From Chloroflexota bacterium (GTDB lineage Bacteria; Chloroflexota; Anaerolineae; Anaerolineales; E44-bin32), in the NCBI GenBank assembly GCA_022561215.1, contig JADFRQ010000004.1, positions 20,820 through 84,819 on the forward strand: a DNA stretch of 64,000 nt, given 5' to 3'. Shown here piece after piece: positions 1,641 through 41,473 of this stretch (the first letter of the stretch is position 1; each line of letters opens with the position of its first letter). The notes under the pieces were generated by a model. The model made no database searches, was not told the origin of the DNA, and was given only the letters and a program-made list of their open reading frames with translations. The position numbers and the translations under genes are program-made.

Positions 1641-2699
1641 CTAACTTTCAATCATTCGCCGTTTGAATTCCTCGAGCACAGGAATTGGAGTCGGGTTCTC
1701 TTTGTAAGATAGGGCGAGATAGTAGGCGACATAATCACCAAAGTGCAGCGCAGTCCACTGCTGCGCTAATCGCGTTTCCCCATTGACATCAATAAAGTCG
1801 GTGTTGAATCCTTCGAGCATCATCAGCTGCTTTGTTAAATCCGTTCGCTGCAAATTCCGCGGATGAAATCCGGTCGTTCGCAGAAAGAGCACCATCGTGC
1901 TTCCAAAGAGCGCTTCGGGATTATTGACGCCGGCAATCATATTGTGATCGGCCTCAGGCAATTCGTTGTATTGGGCGATCGCCTTGGCGAGCTCATTAAT
2001 TTGGGTGGTCCAGCGTCGGGCAACAGGTACCAAATGCTCCGCGGCAAGAATGATAGGCAAACGACCCATCAACTGCCCCGCAATTCGTTTGGCGATATTT
2101 TGCACTACAGGCACTGGAGCTTGGATTTCCTTCTGCTGATTTCTCATTTGAAGAATTGCATCCGCAATCTCTTCTTTCGGATCGGCGATCAACCCTAGGC
2201 GACTGACAGCGGCGAGCAGCAATCCAAAGGAAAAGCCCACTGCCGCCCTGGGCTGACCAGTGTGTTCGAAGATCCAAAGTGGGATATCGGCCTGGCCCGC
2301 GCGCTCGGCGAGTTTTCCCCCGGTCGTCAGCGTTATTAAACTTGCCCCCACTTTTTTCGCTTCTTCGAACGCACTTAATGCTTCTTCGGTATTCCCTGAA
2401 TGGGATGAGATAATAACCAGGCTTTCGGGACCCCGCACAAATGCCGGGAGGCTATAATTTCGCCAGACGACGATGGGCACGGAGGCCGAAGTTGCGGCAT
2501 AGGCCCGCAGCAAATCTCCACCAATTGCTGAACCCCCCATTCCTGCGAGAACAATATGTCGATAGGCCTTTCCAGCGGGCAGAGGGCTTTTCTGTCCCAA
2601 TTCCCACGCCGTTTGCAATTGATCGGGAAGCGCGTCGATCTCCGCCAACATGTCCTCGGGATCCAGCTCATGAAAAGATTCAACATTGTCGAGAATCAT
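1641..2699 (-). CDS. Bifunctional phosphoglucose/phosphomannose isomerase (SIS domain)
   Basis: From the internal Met (MILDNVESFHELDPEDMLAEIDALPDQL) the protein has the typical PGI/PMI N-terminus and SIS motifs (VLAGMGGSAIGGDLL, ISSHSGNTEE). AGGAGG lies upstream. The ATG overlaps the rsmI stop as ATGA. Confidence 0.8.
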   Translation of the reverse strand: MILDNVESFHELDPEDMLAEIDALPDQLQTAWELGQKSPLPAGKAYRHIVLAGMGGSAIGGDLLRAYAATSASVPIVVWRNYSLPAFVRGPESLVIISSHSGNTEEALSAFEEAKKVGASLITLTTGGKLAERAGQADIPLWIFEHTGQPRAAVGFSFGLLLAAVSRLGLIADPKEEIADAILQMRNQQKEIQAPVPVVQNIAKRIAGQLMGRLPIILAAEHLVPVARRWTTQINELAKAIAQYNELPEADHNMIAGVNNPEALFGSTMVLFLRTTGFHPRNLQRTDLTKQLMMLEGFNTDFIDVNGETRLAQQWTALHFGDYVAYYLALSYKENPTPIPVLEEFKRRMIES

Positions 2700-3517
2700 T
2701 TTGCCTCCTGTGTTATCTTGTAAACTTCTCGTCGCAACCAGCCCGATTCGGCAGCAACTTCGCTGGCCACTTTGGATGGCCTTAATCCACTGCGCAGCCG
2801 GTTGCTTACTTCTATACGCACCTCTTCTGCACTCCAACTGAGTGGATCAAGTTGACCACCGATCACCAGCGTCAGTTCGCCCCTGGCTGCATCCTTCTTA
2901 AAGTGCGTTCGCATTTCAGCAATGCTTCCACGCAATATTTCCTCATGCATTTTGGTCATTTCTCGACCAATGGCGATCGGTCGTTCTGCGCCAAAAACGT
3001 CCTCCAAAGCCGCCAGGCTTTCTTGCAAGCGATGTGGAACCTCGAAAAAAATGAATGTTCTTGGTTCGTCTATCAGTTCCTCGAGCATTTTTTTGCGCGC
3101 ATTCTCCTTGCGGGGGATGTATCCCAAAAAGAGGAAGGTATTGGTTGGCAGACCAGAGGCAACTAACGCAGAAAGCAGCGCCGATGCACCGGGAATAGGG
3201 CTGACGCGGTGACCCGCGGCAATCGCTTCCTGCACCAGTTCATATCCTGGATCGGATAGGCTGGGGGTTCCGGCATCGGAGACAAGCGCAACCTCGTTCT
3301 CTTCGAGTGCCTCGAGAATTTTCGTTCCACGCGCCAGTTTATTGTGTTCAAAATAACTAATCAGCGGGGTTTTTATCTGATAGTGAGCCAGCAGCTTGCC
3401 AGTGCGGCGCGTATCCTCGGCGGCAATGAGCGTTACTTCCCCAAGGATGCGCAAGGCGCGCAACGATATATCTTCCAGATTACCGATGGGAGTCGCAACT
3501 AAATAAAGGGTTCCCAC
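2696..3517 (-). CDS. rsmI: 16S rRNA (cytidine1402-2'-O)-methyltransferase RsmI
   Basis: GTLYLVATPIGNLEDISLRALRIL...AAEDTRRTGKLL is the hallmark RsmI N-terminus. I place the start at GTG 3517 (MGTLYLV). The ORF track extends to 3607, but that adds a Cys-rich, non-conserved-looking 30 aa, so the start is uncertain. Confidence 0.85.
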   Translation of the reverse strand: MGTLYLVATPIGNLEDISLRALRILGEVTLIAAEDTRRTGKLLAHYQIKTPLISYFEHNKLARGTKILEALEENEVALVSDAGTPSLSDPGYELVQEAIAAGHRVSPIPGASALLSALVASGLPTNTFLFLGYIPRKENARKKMLEELIDEPRTFIFFEVPHRLQESLAALEDVFGAERPIAIGREMTKMHEEILRGSIAEMRTHFKKDAARGELTLVIGGQLDPLSWSAEEVRIEVSNRLRSGLRPSKVASEVAAESGWLRREVYKITQEAK

Positions 3518-3640
3518 GCAGCTATTGTAGCAGAGACAAACACAAGATTTGGACCGCAGAATCGCAAATTGACAAGCGTTCACTGTACGTGGTAAACTGC
3601 CCATCAATATGTAGGATGGGTATTAACTACCCTACCATTC

Positions 3641-3760
3641 ATTCATCAAGAGAGGTGGAGGGACCGGCCCTTTGAAGCCTCGGCAACCTCCAAAGGCGAT
3701 GCCTGAGGAAGGTGCCAACTCCGGCAGAAGTAGCGGAACTTACTTCTGGGAGATGAGGGT
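3641..3760 (+). promoter_or_regulatory. SAM-I (S-box) riboswitch aptamer controlling metE
   Basis: TTCATCAAGAGAGGTGGAGGGACCGGCCCTTTGAAGCCTCGGCAACC...GGTGCCAACTCCGGCAGAAG...GGGAGATGAGGG matches the S-box core (ATCAAGAG-GGnGGAGGGAC-GGCCC, GCAACC, GGTGCnAAnTCC-GCAG, AGATGAG closing P1). Confidence 0.92.
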
Positions 3761-14573: not shown

Positions 14574-14599
14574 AAAATCAGGTTTCGAAACCTGATTTT
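14574..14599. terminator. Bidirectional intrinsic terminator between flp (+) and the DUF951 gene (-)
   Basis: AAAATCAGGTTTCGAAACCTGATTTT is a perfect 10-bp palindromic stem flanked by an A-run and a T-run. Confidence 0.65.
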
Positions 14600-23851: not shown

Positions 23852-24340
23852 TTAAGAATTCGATCGATTATCGCTATGCTCAATCAAGACGTCGATAGGC
23901 AAGCGGCCTTCATTGGTAAACTCCGGTTCACTTTTTGTCGAATAACTTTGATCACTCTCTTTTCTCATTTGTGTTTTTTTTTCCCGCAAATAACGAATAT
24001 ACCCATTAAGCATTTGCCTCAAATCTGTTATCTGTTCAGAAACCAAATCGAAACGCTTGGCGGAGATATAGCCGAGATCTTTGGAGATGACCATATGGCT
24101 AAATAGTTCATCAAGAGATCCTCTGGCCTGATAGCAGAATCTAATATTTTCCTAAAAGTAATATCGACCATAACCTTCCGCGATATTGGCAGGGATACTA
24201 ATCGCGGCGCGCCGAACTTGTGAGCGAAGGCCCCACTTCTCATCCTCCGGGTAATTTAGAGTAATCTCGCGGTAGATAAACAGGTTGAGCTGGCGAGCCT
24301 TCTGCCAAGTTTCTAAATTCTCAAGGCTATGCTTACTCAT
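23852..24340 (-). pseudogene. Four-helix-bundle protein (23S rRNA intervening-sequence protein family) interrupted by one in-frame TAG
   Basis: Two track ORFs (24152..24340 and 23852..24094) are in the same frame. Read together they give ...IPANIAEGYGRYYF*ENIRFCYQARGSLDELFSHMVISKDLGYIS..., colinear with the family consensus. The TAG is at 24152-24154. Confidence 0.75.
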
Positions 24341-25467: not shown

Positions 25468-25752
25468 ATTAAAAAAATACCGTCCCACTAAGGGACGAGA
25501 TAAGTAAACCCGCGGTACCACCCTTTTTGGCCACTAAGAGCCCACTCTGCACCAACGGCTTTGGAAAAAGCCATGGATTCCTCTTCGATAACGGTGAGGC
25601 TCCGGCCCGAACTACTAACCCATCAATGGGAATTCCCCCGGGCAGCTCCGCAGGGAACTTCACCAGGCTTCCTTCGAGCGAGGGTTTCAGTCATTGCCCT
25701 CGCCTCCCTTGCGAATTTCGCCTGGCTACTTTCCTCCATCATAGCCGATTGC
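25468..25752 (-). promoter_or_regulatory. T-box riboswitch leader of pheS-pheT
   Basis: The minus strand reads AAAAAGGGTGGTACCGCGGG (T-box core at 25511-25523). Stem I elements are upstream (TGATGGAGGAAAGTA, AGGGAG, GGTGAAG). A candidate UUC (Phe) specifier lies at 25655-25657 and a terminator hairpin lies downstream. Confidence 0.85.
25471..25500 (-). terminator. T-box terminator hairpin
   Basis: The minus strand reads CGTCCC-ttagt-GGGACG followed by GTATTTTTTT. Confidence 0.6.
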
Positions 25753-28429: not shown

Positions 28430-29269
28430 ATGCCATCCGCAATAATTTTCCCTCCCCTTGCAGGAGCGGATCCCACCGTAGAGACCCTGCACTGGTATGC
28501 GCGCGCGGCTGGCGTTGTTCCAGGCGCACATATACAGAAACACGCTCAATGGTGGCACCTTACCTTGAAAATAAATGGCGACGATCTCGCGTTTGACAAC
28601 ATCCCGTTTGCCGAAGAGGGGGACAATCTGCAGCTCAAACTGGCTATGCAAGATCATGTTATTACGTTGACTACAGAGAGTGGGAAGGTCAGTCATATAA
28701 GTATGCGCGATGGCAAAACCTCTACAGAAATGGGCGATGCGATCCTCGCTGCTGTGGAAAGGTTTGGTTTCACGAGCGATTACGAGCGCTCAAAATTTGA
28801 GGATGATGCGAAACGTACGTACGATCCCGCAAGCGCCCAGCGCTATTGGAAAATTTTGAAAAATATTGACCGTATCTTTAATACTCACCGAACGATGTTG
28901 TCTGGCGAGAAAAGTCCCGTTCAAGTTTGGCCGCATGGTTTCGATATGTCTTTCGAGCTGTTTGGAAATCAATCGGTAGAGTACGAAAGCCAGGGCGAGA
29001 AAACAACCTATCCCACACAATTAAGCCTGGGCTTTTCACCCGGAGAAGCAAACCATCCGCAGCCCTATTTTTATAGCAACCCCTGGCCTTTCGAAGAAGA
29101 AGTATTGCTGGAGGCCCCCCTTCCCGAGGGTGCACGCTGGTTCACAGAAGGCTGGAAGGGCAGCATATTGCCCTACGCGGAGCTGGTGCAGGATGCCGAT
29201 GCAGAGCAAAGACTGCTGGATTACGCGCGCGCTGTGCATGAGGCCAGCCTGACGATCCTATCGAATTAG
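28430..29269 (+). CDS. Conserved hypothetical protein (DUF5996-like)
   Basis: The layout ETLHWY...WWHLTL...SPVQVWPHGFDMS...PYFYSNPWP resembles DUF5996 as I recall it. The family assignment is tentative. Confidence 0.55.
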   Translation: MPSAIIFPPLAGADPTVETLHWYARAAGVVPGAHIQKHAQWWHLTLKINGDDLAFDNIPFAEEGDNLQLKLAMQDHVITLTTESGKVSHISMRDGKTSTEMGDAILAAVERFGFTSDYERSKFEDDAKRTYDPASAQRYWKILKNIDRIFNTHRTMLSGEKSPVQVWPHGFDMSFELFGNQSVEYESQGEKTTYPTQLSLGFSPGEANHPQPYFYSNPWPFEEEVLLEAPLPEGARWFTEGWKGSILPYAELVQDADAEQRLLDYARAVHEASLTILSN

Positions 29270-29318
29270 TCTTCCGCTAAAATAGTATTTATCGGAGGAT
29301 AAGCGAATATCAATGCAC

Positions 29319-30218
29319 CTATTTATTGGCAGTTCGCGGGGAGCGCTGAAGTTTTAAGTTAACGAACATAATACCCATCAAAATGAGAACCGCACCCACC
29401 ACCAGACGGAAATCCAATAATTCATCCAGGAAAATGACCCCCAAAGCCACACCAACGACCGGCAAGATATAGGTCACAAGAGACGTCCGCGTGGCACCCA
29501 CAGATTCCAGCAGCGAGAAATACAGCAAATAAGCGACGAATGTCCCCAGTAATCCCAACCATAAAATGGCGATCCAAGTTAATCCCCCGCTCGGAAAGCG
29601 GAATGGAAATTCCGCAATCGGGACCGCGGCCCATACAAGCAGATCTGCAAAAAACAAAGGGATAAGTGCCAGGAGCAAGGGAGGAATATTACGCAGATTA
29701 CGTCTGGCATAAACCGCGCTTCCGGCATAGAAGAATGCCGCCAGAAGGACAGCGGCCTGGCCGGCGAACCCGCCACTAAAACTCGCCAGGTTTAGATCGC
29801 GGCTCAAAAGGACGACAATCCCAATAAACCCGGTTATCAACCCTGCGAGGCTGGCAGGCGTAATTTTGTCATCGTCGAGAACAACATGCGCCATGAGGAT
29901 GGTGAACAGTGGGACGGTACCATTCAATACAGAAGTAACGGCGGAATCGATTACTTGCTCCCCTGCCGAGATAAGTACAATTGGGATCGCGCTGTTTACC
30001 GCCCCGAGGAAGGCAAGCTTAAGCCAGAGCGATCGTAGCCGAGGAAATATTGGCTTGCGGATTGCCGCCACCACCGCCAGACCCAATACACCGAATAACA
30101 GTCGAAATGCCACCAGGGTGAAAGGACCTGTTCCTCGTAGGGCGATTTTAATCCAGAAGAAAGATGAACCCCAGATCAAACCCAATACCCCAAACATGAA
30201 CCAATCTTTTGCTTTCAT
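29319..30218 (-). CDS. EamA/DMT superfamily transporter
   Basis: 299 aa with 10 predicted TM helices and a duplicated EamA-type architecture. Confidence 0.85.
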   Translation of the reverse strand: MKAKDWFMFGVLGLIWGSSFFWIKIALRGTGPFTLVAFRLLFGVLGLAVVAAIRKPIFPRLRSLWLKLAFLGAVNSAIPIVLISAGEQVIDSAVTSVLNGTVPLFTILMAHVVLDDDKITPASLAGLITGFIGIVVLLSRDLNLASFSGGFAGQAAVLLAAFFYAGSAVYARRNLRNIPPLLLALIPLFFADLLVWAAVPIAEFPFRFPSGGLTWIAILWLGLLGTFVAYLLYFSLLESVGATRTSLVTYILPVVGVALGVIFLDELLDFRLVVGAVLILMGIMFVNLKLQRSPRTANK

Positions 30219-30450
30219 CGCGTTTGCCTCGAATCCAATAAGGGTACCACTATGGATGGGGTTGCCCCAAAAGATGATCTCTCACCAGTTGAGAGATCAT
30301 TGGTACTGTTTTTGACAGCTGAAGGCAATTAATTTTCTGCATGGTGGGGGCACTCCCAAAAGAGCGATATTGTAATGTGCCTTATCAAGAAACCAGACCC
30401 AGGGCCGAATGGCCCGAACTTTAGCTCGCATCGCACATACGCTTGTGAAG

Positions 30451-30772
30451 GGACAGCGGCTAATTGAAAGAATTCGGTTTTTTATCCCCTATCGAAAGTA
30501 TTGGCCTTTTGGATTGGGCAGCCCCTTACGCTGCGAGGTGGACGGGTTTAATTGCGCATCCCGTATTTCCATCGTGTAGGGGCATCTGGCCAGATGCCCT
30601 TACGCCTGTGATCGGACAGCGGCTAATTGAAAGAATTCGGTTTTCAATCCTACTATCGAAAGTATTGCCCTTTTGGGCAGCCCCTTACTCTGTGAGGTTG
30701 ATGGGTTTGCTTACGCATCCCGTATTTCTATCGTGTAAGGGCATCTGGCCGGATGCCCTTACACTTTCGAAA
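30451..30772. repeat. Tandem duplication of a ~160-bp noncoding unit (units 30451-30613 and 30614-30772)
   Basis: Both units begin GGACAGCGGCTAATTGAAAGAATTCGGTTTT and end in the palindrome GTA(G/A)GGGCATCTGGCC(A/G)GATGCCCTTAC. They are roughly 85-90% identical by eye. Confidence 0.85.
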
Positions 30773-30910
30773 TGCGTTCCCTATTGCACAGGAAAGGCGA
30801 TGGCAGTCCGAGTGAACAGCGCGACTGAAAATGAGGAAACTCGTATTGCAATTCCGCGTGCAGAAGCATACTCGTGGGGATTCCCCGCACTTCTTGAACA
30901 TGACATTCTG

Positions 30911-30983
30911 GGAGGTTGATGGATTTGCTTGCGCATCCCGTATTTCCCTCGTGTAAGGGCATCTGGCCAGATGCCCTTACGCT
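30911..30983. repeat. Third, partial copy of the repeat core with palindrome
   Basis: GGAGGTTGATGGATTTGCTTGCGCATCCCGTATTTCCCTCGTGTAAGGGCATCTGGCCAGATGCCCTTACGC matches the 3' 70 nt of the two tandem units. Confidence 0.8.
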
Positions 30984-31082
30984 TTTCGCAAAACATTCCG
31001 GGTTGCAAGGTATTACGATAGCAGTCGGAGATGGCAGGAGGATCTGAAATTGCACCCTGAACTTCAGTCCGTGCAATACTAT

Positions 31083-31772
31083 CTACAAGGACTCTTTAAA
31101 CGATCCCGAGGCACCTTCGTGGACCAGAAGGGCCATCTTTGTTTTTAGCCCCCCTTTACCAGAATAGCCATGCAGTGCTCCATCTCCGCCTAGAACGCGG
31201 TGACAGGGGATCACTATCGGCATTGGATTCCTTGCCAAGGCTTGACCAACGGCGCGTGCTGCGCGCGATTTTCCAATACGGCGTGCGATCTCACCATAAG
31301 TGCTCACCTCGCCAGGCCTTACTTTCGATGTCGCCATCAAAACTTCGCGTTGAAAATCAGTGACATGTCCTAAGGATATGGGAAGTTCAAATGTTGTGCG
31401 CTCTCCGGAAAAATACTCGAGGAGTTGTCCTCTTACCTGGGCAGTTTTACTGGAGGAGCGCAACGCCCACGCGTTAAAATCCTCTGACAATCTTTTTCCG
31501 AAATCGCGTAAATCCCGACCAAATTCAACGGCTATGACCCCTTTTCCATCCACGGCAGTCATTATGGGCCCCACAGGTGTATCTTCCACGAGATCATAAA
31601 AGACAGTTGATTGTGCGAGAAATTTCTTTAAATTCTCATGCACCTGATTGCTGAGCTCAGCTGTCGGTCCCTTTGCGTAGAGCAAATCCAGATAAACGAG
31701 CACAGTATCTTCGGTGTCATGATTTGACGGCCAATGTTCCAGATCCTTGTCTTCACTGCTTTGATCGTTCAT
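31083..31772 (-). CDS. ogt: Methylated-DNA-protein-cysteine methyltransferase (Ogt/MGMT) with a ~60-aa N-terminal extension
   Basis: The C-terminal DNA-binding/active-site domain is present (VSTYGEIARRIG...AVGQALARNPMPIVIPCHRVLG), as is the Ogt N-domain (GPIMTAVDGKGVIAVEF). The start (ATG 31772 or GTG 31775) overlaps the sigma-factor stop. Confidence 0.85.
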   Translation of the reverse strand: MNDQSSEDKDLEHWPSNHDTEDTVLVYLDLLYAKGPTAELSNQVHENLKKFLAQSTVFYDLVEDTPVGPIMTAVDGKGVIAVEFGRDLRDFGKRLSEDFNAWALRSSSKTAQVRGQLLEYFSGERTTFELPISLGHVTDFQREVLMATSKVRPGEVSTYGEIARRIGKSRAARAVGQALARNPMPIVIPCHRVLGGDGALHGYSGKGGLKTKMALLVHEGASGSFKESL

Positions 31773-32305
31773 CACAAAATCACCTCGATTTTAGACAACT
31801 GGCTCAGTTTTGCACGTAAGGTTTTCAGCCCTTGATAAACATTTGCGCGCGCTGCCTCCTGGCTACAAACAAGCGCAGTCCCGATTTCTGCGTATGTTAA
31901 TTCTTGATATTTGCGAAGGATAATCGCCGCTTTTTGGCGCCGGGGGAGTGCATTTACCTGCGCAGCAAGAAGCGCCAACACCTGTCTTGTCTCTGCCTCG
32001 CGCTCCACCATCCTCGGCGTTCCTAATTGATTAATATCGACCAATTGCGCGTTGCGGGCGCGCTTCTTCCGAGCTGTGTTGGCGCTGTTTGTCGCAATTT
32101 TATACAACCAGGCACGATAGTTTCCACCGGAGGGCAACTTTTCATACGCCCGATAAGCGCGCAAATAAACATCTTGTAAACAATCCTCTGCGTCCTGCTC
32201 GTCAGCCAGCATGCGCCAAAGGTATGCATACAACTCAACGCTATGAAGATCAACCAATTCATTGAAATCGGGTTTAGACGCCACAATAATTTCCAGCCGA
32301 CGCAA
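31772..32305 (-). CDS. ECF (sigma-24 type) RNA polymerase sigma factor
   Basis: Region 2 (DAEDCLQDVYLRAYRAYEKL...YRAWLYKIATN) and region 4 (LPRRQKAAIILRKYQELTYAEIGTALVCSQEAARANVYQGLKTLR). Confidence 0.9.
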   Translation of the reverse strand: MRRLEIIVASKPDFNELVDLHSVELYAYLWRMLADEQDAEDCLQDVYLRAYRAYEKLPSGGNYRAWLYKIATNSANTARKKRARNAQLVDINQLGTPRMVEREAETRQVLALLAAQVNALPRRQKAAIILRKYQELTYAEIGTALVCSQEAARANVYQGLKTLRAKLSQLSKIEVIL

Positions 32306-32652
32306 CTACCATGTATAACTCGCGCAGAGAGTATTTTGTGAAATTCAAAATTGAGCTAATTCTGTGCTTAAACGATCGCCCACAAAACGGGGGGCGGATG
32401 GGTCGCGACGTTACTTGCCAAGGATTTATTCTCTTCATTATGGAATAAGGTGCCGTTTGTTATCACAGATCGTGTATGTCCGGCTGTCCGATTTCTCAGG
32501 GAATCCTTCAATACTTGCGCCGCCCTACAACATCCCCTGGGAAATAGTTTCCGAATCTGCTCCCACTTTTGCAGACAAAAATGAGACGACGGAACCACGC
32601 ATTATCCTCGCCAACAGTTATGTGAAAAACCACATGCGCAAATTTTTACCGA

Positions 32653-40617: not shown

Positions 40618-41241
40618 CTATGGAGTGCCGAAGCTCTGCTTCGGCATCGCGCAAGTAGAGGCCTGAGCCGTGCTCAGATTGCGCACTCCAGAAGAACTCA
40701 TTCCACTTCTTCTACGTGTATTCGATCGGATCGGCTGCGCGAATACCTTTTCACGAAAGACTACCCTCGCGGTGTTCAGAAACCATGAGTAGCTTGAAAA
40801 TTCATAATCCTCAGGCCTATCGACATAACCGTGCTTTGAGGGATTCACATGTACATAATGCAATCTGGCGAGATAGGAACTCTCTTTTGTAATGCAGGTA
40901 TCCCAATAGTTGTACCAAACTCGACGACCCGGCATGTTGTCTGCACGATTAAGGTATTTCGCACTTATTGAATGGATGGCCTGGATCAAAGTCGATAAGG
41001 AGGGTGAGTTTTCCGGTGCTCGAGCAATAAAATGATAATTATTGGGTAAAATCGACCGAGCTTCTAATTCCCAACTCAGTCTTGCAGATTGACGAAATAA
41101 TATATCGACAAGAACCCTCTTTTTCGCATCGGTGTTTATTAGTCGCAATTTTGCATATATCGCAGCCGTAATTATATAAATACTATTCGGACGAAAAAGG
41201 TGAGGCGGCGTATGCGCGGATTCTACGAACTTTTCGTTCAT
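40618..41241 (-). CDS. IS200/RayT-like Y1 (HUH-family) transposase homologue
   Basis: The core ILPNNYHFIA...(HUH position) and LHYVHVNPSKHGYV align by eye with REP-associated tyrosine transposases (LPEHMHCIW, YIYINPVKHGWV). I start it at MNEKFVESAH; the track ORF extends to 41283. Confidence 0.8.
   Translation of the reverse strand: MNEKFVESAHTPPHLFRPNSIYIITAAIYAKLRLINTDAKKRVLVDILFRQSARLSWELEARSILPNNYHFIARAPENSPSLSTLIQAIHSISAKYLNRADNMPGRRVWYNYWDTCITKESSYLARLHYVHVNPSKHGYVDRPEDYEFSSYSWFLNTARVVFREKVFAQPIRSNTRRRSGMSSSGVRNLSTAQASTCAMPKQSFGTP
40622..40691. repeat. Structured flanking repeat, copy 1
   Basis: GGAGTGC-CGAAGCtctGCTTCGG-cat-CGCGCAAgtagaggCCTGAGCcgtGCTCAGaTTGCGC-ACTCC: the outer 7-bp stem encloses two hairpins. 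Confidence 0.8.
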
Positions 41242-41359
41242 CCTATCTATTCCAGAACGGGCCACGAATCTAGCGTGGCCCAAGCTCTAGATTTAGCTTG
41301 AGCTCTTCTCAGGTTACGCAGCAGTTGATCATTTAGCTGCCAAAAAAGGCAACACTTTT

Positions 41360-41430
41360 GGAGTGCCGAAGCTCTGCTTCAGCATTGCGCAAGTAAAGGC
41401 CTGAGCCGTGCCCAGGTTGCGCACTCCAGA
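41360..41430. repeat. Structured flanking repeat, copy 2
   Basis: Same sequence as 40622-40691 with 5 substitutions, two of which weaken the internal hairpins. Confidence 0.8.
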
Positions 41431-41473
41431 ATCCAGGATTTCCCAGTATCTTCTTCCTCTGGGAGCCTTTCTT

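Follow-up and report, generated by a model that had tools for sequence, protein, structure and literature searches.

A hairpin repeat array resembling REP clusters between ogt and eamA in an uncultured Anaerolineales bacterium

REP elements of the GTAG super-family are dispersed at high copy number, usually above 100 per genome, and their reiteration together with flanking DNA into clusters has been described (Di Nocera, De Gregorio & Rocco 2013, PMC3733652). They are extragenic, lie downstream of an ORF and mostly separate unidirectional or convergent genes. The classification in PMC3733652 admits degenerate tags (GTRG, for example) and includes clustered GTAG-23 elements in a member of the Chloroflexi, Thermomicrobium roseum, and the long-stem type GTAG-24; the GTAG tag at one end is described there as unpaired. 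The BIMEs of enterobacteria (Nunvar 2010, PMC2817692) consist of REPs in alternating orientation with defined linkers.

The locus considered here lies in a window of 64 kb (the whole stretch of DNA analysed) from an Anaerolineales (Chloroflexota) bacterium, in which an ECF-sigma gene, ogt and eamA form an operon on the - strand and a hairpin repeat array separates the last two genes. This array resembles the clusters of GTAG super-family REPs (PMC3733652) in its GC-rich 28-nt palindromes with a GTA(G/A) end, in the G/T pairs of the stems, in its extragenic position between co-directional genes and downstream of a coding region, and in the tandem reiteration of units with their flanking DNA. 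The palindromes fall within the 20-40 bp of REP stem-loops, and their stems of 12-14 bp (-15 to -19 kcal/mol) are as long as those of GTAG-24 REPs. It differs from GTAG super-family REPs in that no dispersed copies are found in ~84 kb, in that GTAA rather than GTAG is present in two of the three copies, and in that the RAYT of the window is flanked by another repeat. Moreover, the GTAR foot of the array is base-paired with its YTAC complement, whereas the tag is unpaired in the GTAG REPs of PMC3733652, and the copies stand head-to-tail, an orientation rare for REP dimers. With the BIMEs of PMC2817692 the array shares a composite intergenic structure of several REP-like hairpins, and by analogy only it may affect mRNA stability or attenuation inside operons. 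BIMEs have regularly spaced, alternating REPs and units of tens of nt, whereas the copies here share one orientation, the units measure 160-220 nt and a single locus is occupied. The preliminary description had offered a REP/BIME-like family, a family of structured RNAs or protein-binding sites as possible identities. The first is the closest in form, but neither dispersed copies (in ~84 kb) nor alternating orientation accompany it. The resemblance to REP clusters does not prove that the array belongs to a truly dispersed REP family.

On its own this finding matters little, and the array is fairly ordinary. It shows a tight ECF sigma–ogt–eamA operon that appears to have been pried apart by an arriving, locally amplified hairpin repeat, and the locus offers a clean comparison of filled and empty sites in uncultured Anaerolineales. 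If the hairpins modulate eamA, or if the element moves without a linked RAYT, it would provide a Chloroflexota example for a REP literature dominated by Proteobacteria.

Setting and anatomy of the array

The ogt–eamA spacer is 864 nt long and both flanking genes are on the - strand. The array begins at the ogt stop codon. It had been proposed that the repeats fill the whole gap; in fact they cover ~600 of the 864 nt, and the remainder is made up of a non-repeated 94-nt stretch (30813-30906) and ~210 nt of other leader sequence. Wherever the spacer is covered in same-organism contigs from ten metagenome assemblies its identity is 99-100%, with six of the assemblies spanning it entirely and four beginning inside it. 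The array is genuine sequence and no assembly artefact, because the metagenome contigs extending into the spacer contain it at this identity. At 99-100% identity, the same-organism contigs offer no strain variation to exploit. The palindromes break short-read assemblies of the host at this locus, and several assemblies end at a palindrome. GC at the locus is 50.3%, compared with 50.5% for the window; a foreign origin of the array on grounds of composition was rejected since its GC matches that of the genome.

Tandem Repeats Finder reports a single array at 30438-30762, with a period of 159, 2.0 copies and 86% matches, and a self-blast aligns 30433-30603 with 30596-30762 (85.5% over 172 nt). 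The two tandem units of ~160 nt in the preliminary description are thereby confirmed, with boundaries better placed at 30433/30438-30603 and 30596/30604-30762. A third copy is also present, as had been claimed, but it is longer than the 70 nt assigned to it, because 30907-31030 matches 30689-30812 at 82% over 125 nt and so reaches 50 nt past the palindrome; the corresponding tail of unit 2 is common to both. A second repeat search recovers three copies of a 90-nt element, at 30514-30603, 30673-30762 and 30891-30980 (100, 89 and 78%). Unit spacings are 163, 164 and 159 nt. All features are listed in Table 1.

Table 1. Features of the insert and its surroundings, in window coordinates
Feature	Position	Strand	Basis or remark
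Whole lineage-specific insert	30264..31100, ±10 nt		Ancestral ogt end to ancestral ~45-nt eamA leader; comparison with L042, L043 and L031
Full unit 1 (eamA-proximal)	30433..30603	-	Self-blast, TRF; covariance model 82 bits on - strand
Full unit 2 (30604-30762) with 50-nt tail (30763-30812)	30604..30812	-	Covariance model 81.4 bits
Partial unit 3: 46-nt core, palindrome 3 and 50-nt tail	30907..31030	-	Covariance model 90.7 bits
Palindrome 1, GTAGGGGCATCTGGCCAGATGCCCTTAC	30576..30603		One G/T position at pair 4/25
Palindrome 2, GTAAGGGCATCTGGCCGGATGCCCTTAC	30735..30762		One T/G position at pair 12/17
Palindrome 3, GTAAGGGCATCTGGCCAGATGCCCTTAC	30953..30980		Sole perfect copy; GCTTTTCGC next on + strand
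"Upstream half-site" of unit 1, GGGCAGCCCCTTAC	30516..30529		Taken as collapsed palindrome copy
"Upstream half-site" of unit 2, GGGCAGCCCCTTAC	30675..30688		Motif search and L031 alignment
Degenerate module like L031 post-hairpin segment	30309..30357	-	L031 936-982 against window 30357-30309, 69% over 49 nt, weak (E 0.03)
Separate 11-bp hairpin inside the insert	30274..30300		55-80 nt upstream of eamA start
Ancestral eamA leader with Shine-Dalgarno sequence	30219..30263	-	88% identity to L031/L032; recognisable in L042 and L043

All three palindromes follow the pattern GTARGGGCATCTGGCCRGATGCCCTTAC, which is absent from the rest of the 64 kb at up to 3 mismatches and occurs 0 times in 100 shuffles. 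They had been described as perfect in each copy, and this is true of the third alone, the other two having one G/T position each. As an RNA hairpin, palindrome 1 has a stability of -18.6 kcal/mol on the + strand and -14.7 kcal/mol on the - strand; with its flanks, palindrome 2 becomes a 32-nt palindrome, GTGTAAGGG…CCCTTACAC. The foot reads GTAG in the first copy and GTAA in the other two, and CTAC is found on the far side of the palindrome in copy 1 (- strand) and in the relative L032. In unit 1 the palindrome occupies the 3' end of the + strand, and the first 8 nt of the unit (GCACATAC) are similar to the end of one more palindrome, now decayed. All three copies and their orthologues have the same, head-to-tail orientation with asymmetric flanks; with the covariance model they reach 81-91 bits on the - strand as against 33-41 bits on the + strand. 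The separate hairpin close to eamA is terminator-like on the + strand, is followed by CTTTTGGGG on the - strand and is absent from L031.

Filled and empty sites among relatives

More distant relatives have a tight sigma-ogt-eamA operon, in which ogt and eamA overlap by 4 nt (L035) or are separated by 37 nt (L033) or 109 nt (L037). In two closer relatives, L042 and L043 (Ogt 73% and 71% identical), the site is empty, with spacers of 43 and 42 nt that match the proximal leader of the window. The Ogt proteins of both end in HEGAxGx*, like that of the outgroup L033; Ogt in the window and in L031 has 5 extra codons, which are part of the insert. The nearest carrier, L031/L032 (EamA 78% identical), has a 253-nt spacer with an insert of ~210 nt and two units, compared with ~830 nt here, where three palindromes are intact and two or more have collapsed. 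Its left junction is homologous to that of the window (GAGTCC..TAGAT) and its hairpin lies in the common context GCGAAAAGC-hairpin-ACAC. The full hairpin of L031/L032 has its orthologue in partial unit 3 (L031 988-1087 aligns to window 31045-30946), and the second unit of L031/L032 contains a collapsed palindrome. The hairpin core is conserved between species: 90% of cells pair, with one double change from A-U to G-C and one change from C-G to U-G. The covariation amounts to a single event and does not exceed the shuffle control (56/500).

These comparative data (the tight operons, the empty sites and the L031 version) indicate that the array is a lineage-specific insertion in an old three-gene operon, followed by local amplification. 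A piece of DNA with a GC-rich palindrome and a GTA(G/A) foot would have entered the ogt–eamA junction in one Anaerolineales sub-lineage, displacing the ogt stop codon and so adding five codons to ogt. Growth would have followed by head-to-tail duplication of the hairpin with its flanking DNA, probably through unequal recombination or replication slippage between units, with an occasional collapse of a palindrome centre. In the gene tree the insert-bearing lineages (the window and L031) are sisters in only 36 of 500 bootstraps. Since the tree does not group them, one insertion with vertical descent would hold only if a further loss or another gain is assumed, or if the tree is poorly resolved. 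A pattern of filled and empty sites among four closely related lineages that departs from the gene tree, together with Ogt ends of the outgroup type at the empty sites, would fit repeated gain or precise loss and not one ancient insertion. It is conceivable, if improbable, that the hairpin unit is a site-specific mobile module, independent of a transposase or mobilised in trans, that inserts at the ogt stop codon and is precisely excised from it.

The same comparison bears on CCCCTTAC, which was correctly reported to lie upstream in both full units (30522-30529 and 30681-30688). At the corresponding place L031 has GTAAGGG|AGACGCCCCTAC, a palindrome with its centre deleted, and the upstream half-site therefore looks like a collapsed copy of the palindrome and not like a designed competitor. 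Such a competitor had been postulated in the form of mutually exclusive hairpins. The units would then be cis-regulatory switches, attenuator- or riboswitch-like, in which the upstream CCCCTTAC competes with the 3' arm for the GTAAGGG arm, an idea that draws on the constant 46-nt distance from CCCCTTAC to the palindrome in both full units and on the possibility of an alternative 7-bp helix. We consider it very unlikely. The alternative pairing, when forced, is 8-10 kcal/mol less stable than the MFE structure and appears in neither the MFE nor the centroid structures, and copy 3 has no half-site. Furthermore, the gene-sense strand has no terminator U tract, neither an aptamer-like conserved structure nor an Rfam match was found, and close relatives have the same genes without the element.

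Dispersed copies and the RAYT of the window

No further copies of the array exist in ~84 kb of contiguous genome (the window and ~10 kb on each side). At 100 copies per genome of 4-5 Mb, ~2 would be expected in ~84 kb, so that their absence there is weak evidence against a dispersed REP family. When a covariance model of the hairpin and its flanks was run over 162 kb of loci it recovered the known copies alone, and no homologous unit was found outside the ogt–eamA locus and its orthologue. Scanning 185,579 species genomes with the 28-mer gave a sole match, in a Fibrobacteres MAG, in which a palindrome identical at 24 of 28 positions occurs twice, one copy being in frame inside a RAYT-like gene. 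The match is probably due not to homology but to a "GTAGGGGC…GCCCCTAC" type of palindrome common to both, and the flanks are unrelated. The 22-nt core gave 18 matches among metagenome contigs; nearly all of these JGI metagenome matches are unrelated GC hairpins (GGGCATCCGGCCGGATGCCC) with other flanks, and one (L013) is an assembly fold-back. Viral contigs, plasmids and phages yielded nothing when searched for the repeat.

With 91.3 bits for NF047646 (cut-off 80), the Y1 transposase gene at 40618-41283 is a bona fide RAYT. It had been suggested that this enzyme is not the obvious mobiliser of the array, and this holds, for the RAYT is flanked by its own, different 73-nt repeat (40621-40693 and 41359-41431) and does not form a REPtron with the array. 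A third copy of the 73-nt repeat is located 5.8 kb beyond the window. This RAYT-linked repeat is, like the array, a structured, hairpin-rich intergenic repeat of the same genome with a GTAG/GTAA motif. It differs from the array in being dispersed and physically linked to the transposase, and its sequence and fold are unrelated, with two hairpins inside a GGAGTGC/GCACTCC stem.

One may ask whether the present locus is one cluster of a true REP/REPIN-type family that is dispersed through the genome and mobilised, as single-stranded DNA, by a Y1 (RAYT) transposase whose gene lies elsewhere. In favour of this, the palindrome is GC-rich, its foot is GTAG/GTAA and its other end CTAC/TTAC, the flanking genes are co-directional, and clustering with flanking DNA is typical (PMC3733652). 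The presence or absence of the insert at the same site in close relatives, off the gene tree, suggests gain or precise loss, and the breaks of several assemblies at a palindrome and the two Fibrobacteres palindromes point in the same direction. These points are outweighed in our judgement by the lack of more copies, either in the other ~63 kb of the window or within 10 kb of its two ends, by a different, dispersed repeat around the sole RAYT in view, and by matches that are confined to the Fibrobacteres MAG in the species genomes and are unrelated hairpins in the JGI metagenomes. In addition, the copies are all head-to-tail with no inverted pairs, and their GTAR foot is paired, contrary to the unpaired tag of the GTAG REPs in PMC3733652. 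We regard membership of such a family as unlikely.

Coding potential, RNA structure and transcription

The list of open reading frames contains an ORF of 151 aa at 30464-30919 (+), which the preliminary description dismissed as the repeat translated. We agree, with the qualification that the peptides of the two units are near-identical (HPVFPSCRGIWPDALT and HPVFLSCKGIWPDALT) and not the same peptide twice. That the frame stays open for 456 nt through both units might be taken to argue for a real repeat protein, but this is extremely improbable. A Pfam search of the array gave no match, and a concatenated six-frame translation, compared with 5.8 billion proteins so as to catch spurious ORFs over other copies, gave none at E≤1. 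The gene callers in all six spacer-spanning assemblies passed over this ORF, the sole ORF called in the spacer being one of 39 aa. Moreover, the indels between units are not multiples of three, so that the unit spacings break the frame, and the ORF has a TTG start and is antisense to the operon.

Several other identities were rejected. CRISPR arrays have short repeats and unique spacers of similar short length; here the palindromes are separated by stretches of 131 and 190 nt that show mutual homology. In diversity-generating (DGR) template and variable repeats the differences are confined to the adenines of one copy and a reverse transcriptase is nearby; units 1 and 2 differ by 17 substitutions of ten different types that are not adenine-specific, and the genes called within 10 kb of eamA include no reverse transcriptase. 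Integron attC sites, also those of a CALIN, are imperfect palindromes of 57-141 bp that have extrahelical bases and end in R''(RYYYAAC)/R'(GTTRRRY); this identity was rejected since the present palindromes are 28 nt long, end in GTAAGGG/CCCTTAC and have no GTTRRRY.

None of the 4227 Rfam models matched 30200-31100, whether gathering thresholds or E≤10 was applied, and hence there is no clear match to a described RNA family; in the rest of the window Rfam recognises a T-box and a SAM riboswitch and nothing else. The fold of unit 1 is no more stable than that of shuffled sequences (z about -1; -0.9), and outside the hairpin the units fold no better or modestly better than shuffles. With no homologous unit found outside this locus and its orthologue, the proposal of a family of structured RNAs is not borne out.

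A consensus scan for sigma-70 sites predicted no sigma-70-like promoter on the - strand inside the spacer, so that the sigma-ogt-eamA mRNA of the - strand most likely includes the array. The interpretation that we prefer, at about even confidence, is of a non-coding, locus-restricted hairpin repeat cluster, REP-cluster-like in form, transcribed within the operon mRNA. We infer both the strand and a role at the RNA level: in the mRNA the 12-14-bp hairpins would act in a REP-like manner as barriers to 3' exonucleases, and may be partial attenuators that uncouple the expression of eamA from that of sigma-ogt. On the question of strand the G·U-compatible variants conflict, with copies 1 and 2 of the window favouring the + strand and L031/L032 favouring the - strand.

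Wobble evidence with no consistent strand preference would also be compatible with a function of the duplex palindrome in protein binding. A DNA-binding dimer, for example of a transcription factor, a nucleoid protein or a tyrosine recombinase, would occupy it, and the array would form a bank of operators upstream of eamA. The perfect or near-perfect symmetry over 28 bp, in an 11-6-11 layout, and the symmetric change of both arms between species fit this idea, which we nevertheless judge improbable. Besides the ECF sigma factor, no regulator or recombinase is found among the neighbouring genes whose families were checked. Operators do not typically show perfect symmetry over 28 bp around a palindromic centre, and such a site would lend recombination no directionality. 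The sites are 220-760 nt from the eamA start. Finally, the collapsed copies and the absence of the element in close relatives oppose a needed regulatory site.

Alternatively, each unit might encode, on the + strand, a small RNA that is antisense to the operon and has the palindrome as its terminator; the tandem units would then be paralogous sRNAs. On that strand every unit ends in a hairpin, GCTTTTCGC follows both copy 3 and the L031 orthologue, the G/T variants of copies 1 and 2 remain paired on the + strand only, and a promoter-like TTGAAA-18-TACTAT is present at 30627-30656 (+), inside unit 2. This promoter-like site is not kept in unit 1, however, nor does the T run recur after copies 1 and 2, and a terminator scan of 29000-32500 called none of the three palindromes as an intrinsic terminator on either strand. 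Together with the shuffle-like fold of unit 1, the lack of an Rfam match, the L031 wobble that favours the opposite strand and the close relatives without the element, this makes the sRNA explanation rather unlikely.

Returning to the operon mRNA, the array resembles intrinsic terminators in having a stable GC-rich hairpin past a stop codon, followed in copy 3 by UUUU on the + strand. It differs from them in the lack of a U tract on the gene-sense strand, and because no U tract follows the hairpins on the - strand we rejected them as canonical terminators. The bona fide terminators in the window, unlike the array, have both A and T tracts, as at 14574-14599 (AAAATCAGGTTTCGAAACCTGATTTT).

The repeat array of the ogt–eamA spacer

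Repeats occupy much of the 864-nt spacer between ogt and eamA, as the preliminary description had observed. Tandem Repeats Finder reports 2.0 copies of a 159-nt period with 86% matches, and a repeat search of the window recovers a 90-nt family of three copies, each with a palindrome at its end. The degenerate 28-mer describing these palindromes matches three sites and, with 3 mismatches allowed, no others in the 64-kb window; in 100 shuffles it was found 0 times. The three palindromes, which make up 3 of the 8 perfect hairpins with stems of 9 bp or more in the entire window, are therefore where they had been described, but they had all been called perfect, and this holds for copy 3 only. Similarly, the third copy is present but is longer than the 70 nt first assigned to it; sensitive self-comparison gives 125 nt, running 50 nt beyond the palindrome. 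Unit 1 opens with 8 nt that look like the end of another, decayed palindrome. Unit spacings are 163, 164 and 159 nt.

The array is not an assembly artefact: ten metagenome assemblies, belonging to at least three study series, contain contigs of the same organism, and each of these agrees at 99-100% identity over whatever part of the spacer it covers. Six of the ten span all of it. The other four, from short-read assemblies (L006, L007, L008 and L010), begin within the array, L007 precisely at a palindrome. An unrelated JGI contig (L013) ends, at a similar palindrome, in a fold-back copy of its own sequence. De Bruijn assemblies are being broken or mis-joined by perfect palindromes.

Coordinates of the features discussed (window positions unless a contig is named)
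Feature	Position	Strand	Remarks
eamA	29319-30218	-	Pfam EamA, E 9e-43
ogt	31083-31775	-	Pfam DNA_binding_1 and Methyltransf_1N
ECF-type sigma gene with ogt	31083-32305	-	sigma gene overlaps ogt start by 4 nt, also in L033, L035, L042, L043
Proximal leader	30219-30263		
Insert	~30264-31100		~830 nt
Tandem repeat	30438-30762		
28-mer sites	30576-30603, 30735-30762, 30953-30980		
Third copy	30907-31030		82% to 30689-30812
Separate hairpin	30274-30300		11 bp, ATGATCTCTCACCAGTTGAGAGATCAT
Bidirectional terminator (example)	14574-14599		A and T tracts
SAM riboswitch	3640-3759	+	84 bits, directly 5' of metE-like gene; standard
T-box leader	25488-25751	-	98 bits, directly 5' of pheS; standard
Small ORF, 23S_rRNA_IVP (PF05635)	~24152-24340; L003 15879-16067		between pheS and pheT in all assemblies with a contig across that stretch
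RAYT ORF	40618-41283	-	NCBIfam NF047646, 91.3 bits (cut-off 80)
73-nt repeats	40621-40693, 41359-41431		direct copies flanking RAYT, 93% identical
Third 73-nt copy	L040 17236-17305		85%
Fibrobacteres RAYT-like ORF	L002 (CANKII010000001.1) 2208-2786		NF047646 52.6 bits, in two stretches
Fibrobacteres palindromes	L002 2482-2509; L001 2392-2419		identical; 28 nt, perfect
Fold-back contig end	L013 5271-5341		

An insert in an ancestral operon

An oriented non-coding hairpin unit entered an ancestral operon at the stop codon of ogt and was amplified head-to-tail, and its hairpin core has been maintained in the single other carrier lineage, L031/L032. Homologues of the flanking proteins carry the names Anaerolineales or Chloroflexota, and MCH7586777.1, a protein of a Chloroflexota MAG, is identical to the Ogt of the window. 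In L033, L035, L042 and L043, the relatives whose contigs extend to the sigma gene, the genes stand in the order ECF sigma–ogt–eamA, so that a tight operon is the ancestral arrangement. The short spacers of L042 and L043 have a recognisable counterpart in the proximal leader of the window, and their Ogt ends in HEGAxGx*, the same as in the outgroup L033. Five extra Ogt codons in the window (FKESL*) and in L031/L032 (SNESI*) sit in homologous left ends of the insert (GAGTCC..TAGAT). Comparison of the junctions and inserts thus shows that the array is a lineage-specific insert, enlarged by duplication of the hairpin and flanking DNA. Its GC content (50.3%) matches that of the genome (50.5%), and foreign DNA was rejected on this basis.

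The ogt–eamA junction in the window and its relatives (protein identity to the window)
Locus	EamA	Ogt	Junction
Window			864 nt
L031/L032	78%	74%	253 nt, insert ~210 nt
L042		73%	43 nt, empty site
L043		71%	42 nt, empty site
L033	64%	54%	37 nt
L035	61%		4-nt overlap
L037	64%		109 nt, carries an unrelated hairpin

The L031/L032 insert consists of two modules of ~125 nt each. In module 1 the centre of the palindrome is deleted (GTAAGGG|AGACGCCCCTAC), and module 2 has a full hairpin in the context of window copy 3 (GCGAAAAGC-GCAAGGGTGTCTTGCCAGACGCCC(C)TA(A)C-ACAC, compared with GCGAAAAGC-GTAAGGGCATCTGGCCAGATGCCCTTAC-ACAC in copy 3). Between the species core pairing is preserved, with one double change (A-U→G-C) and one C-G→U-G, and the foot of the hairpin decays; the covariation is a single event, not significant alone (56/500 shuffles). 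The units may have multiplied by unequal recombination or by slippage between them, palindrome centres now and then collapsing in the process. A small NJ analysis, based on 356 positions of Ogt and the EamA N-terminal part, leaves the four close lineages unresolved and, since the window and L031 are sisters in just 36 of 500 bootstraps, the presence and absence of the insert may reflect more than one event.

In Anaerolineales the sigma–ogt–eamA order is kept down to ~60% protein identity, and the ogt of the sigma–ogt pair has an N-terminal extension of ~60 aa. A sigma factor and a DNA-repair methyltransferase make an unusual pairing.

Coding potential, RNA structure and transcription

A 151-codon ORF crosses the units and had been dismissed at the outset as the repeat translated. 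It has no Pfam match and is called in none of the six spacer-spanning assemblies, in which the sole ORF listed is of 39 aa; the array, translated in six frames and concatenated, had no match at E≤1 in 5.8 billion proteins, and indels between units disrupt the reading frame. That judgement is upheld, and a coding repeat, rejected on these grounds, has a negligible chance of being correct. The units differ by substitutions of every type, and a DGR pair was rejected for this reason.

A comparison with Rfam 15, proposed in the preliminary description, gave no match over 30200-31100 even at E≤10, which rules out a known RNA family there; elsewhere in the window it identifies the T-box and the SAM riboswitch. 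The palindrome hairpin dominates the RNA folds of the units. Unit 1 is about as stable as its shuffles on both strands (z -0.9 and -1.0) and unit 2 modestly more stable (z -3.1 and -3.4), and the predicted folds offer no convincing structure apart from the hairpin. It had also been suggested that an upstream half-site, CCCCTTAC, could compete for the GTARGGG arm and give mutually exclusive hairpins. The folds lend this no support: the pairing is formable by force, at a cost of 8-10 kcal/mol relative to the MFE structure, and is found in neither MFE nor centroid structures. In alignment the half-site falls on the collapsed palindrome of L031 (ACAGAGTAAGGG…) and so is most readily taken for a decayed palindrome copy, not a designed competitor. 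We consider a switch with competing hairpins very improbable.

None of the three palindromes was called in a terminator scan, and they are unlike the genuine-looking bidirectional terminators of the window, with their A and T tracts; a canonical terminator was rejected. The separate hairpin within the insert, 55-80 nt 5' of the eamA start, is terminator-like on the + strand and is followed on the - strand by CTTTTGGGG; L031 is without it.

Because a consensus scan predicts no - strand promoter inside the spacer, the array would be transcribed within the - strand sigma-ogt-eamA mRNA. There its 12-14-bp hairpins might serve, as REPs may, as 3'-exonuclease barriers or as partial attenuators, uncoupling eamA from sigma-ogt; functions of this type are hypothesised for REPs (PMC3733652). 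G/T variants give conflicting strand hints, so that any role at the RNA level is hypothetical. Among the rival readings, we regard sRNA genes on the + strand as quite unlikely. That the palindromes are protein-binding sites is slightly less likely still. To the overall reading, a locus-restricted, REP-cluster-like hairpin repeat transcribed in the operon mRNA, we assign about an even chance.

Relation to REP sequences and the RAYT gene

Elsewhere in the window, and in 10 kb past each end (~84 kb in total), there is no other copy of the palindrome, core or unit. A covariance model of the hairpin and flanks, run over 162 kb of loci, recovered the known copies only, all in the same orientation: they score 81-91 bits on the strand of the genes, against 33-41 bits for the palindrome alone on the opposite strand. 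In a scan of one genome per species (185,579 species) the 28-mer was found only in a Fibrobacteres MAG, as two copies of GTAGGGGCATCCGGCCGGATGCCCCTAC with unrelated flanks. Matches of the 22-nt core in JGI metagenomes are unrelated hairpins, and viral, plasmid and phage collections yielded nothing. Given the ~84 kb of contiguous coverage of its own genome, a low-copy dispersed family is possible; a true dispersed REP family is unlikely.

The closest description is that of REP clusters, GTAG-tagged palindromes of genomes that include Chloroflexi (Di Nocera et al. 2013, PMC3733652). The array resembles these in size, GC-rich stem, location and clustering, whereas copy number and dispersal, RAYT linkage and an unpaired GTAG tag are unmatched or not demonstrated, and it differs from a BIME, which requires alternating orientation. 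With the features shared in part, we liken the array to a REP cluster, which it resembles in appearance and probably in working, and do not count its membership of a REP family as proven. It adds a locus-restricted case to the intergenic repeats that carry palindromes, new but of an ordinary kind, well delimited and mildly interesting.

The 'REP-associated tyrosine transposase' (RAYT) of the window is flanked by its own 73-nt repeat, which forms two hairpins within a GGAGTGC/GCACTCC stem and whose left copy runs into the 3' end of the ORF. The third copy, ~5.8 kb past the left window end, occupies a short gap between a pantothenate-kinase and an MFS-transporter gene. This repeat is the RAYT-linked family of this genome and is unrelated to the ogt–eamA array, in agreement with the earlier opinion that this Y1 transposase is not the obvious mobiliser. 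In its HUH motif the first His is seemingly replaced (LPNNYHFIA). One Fibrobacteres palindrome is intergenic; the other, on a different contig, lies in frame in the RAYT-like gene (…NHIHGIIWIVSGRGIRPDAPT…), right after the HUH motif, a curious case of a REP-like palindrome inside its own putative transposase gene.
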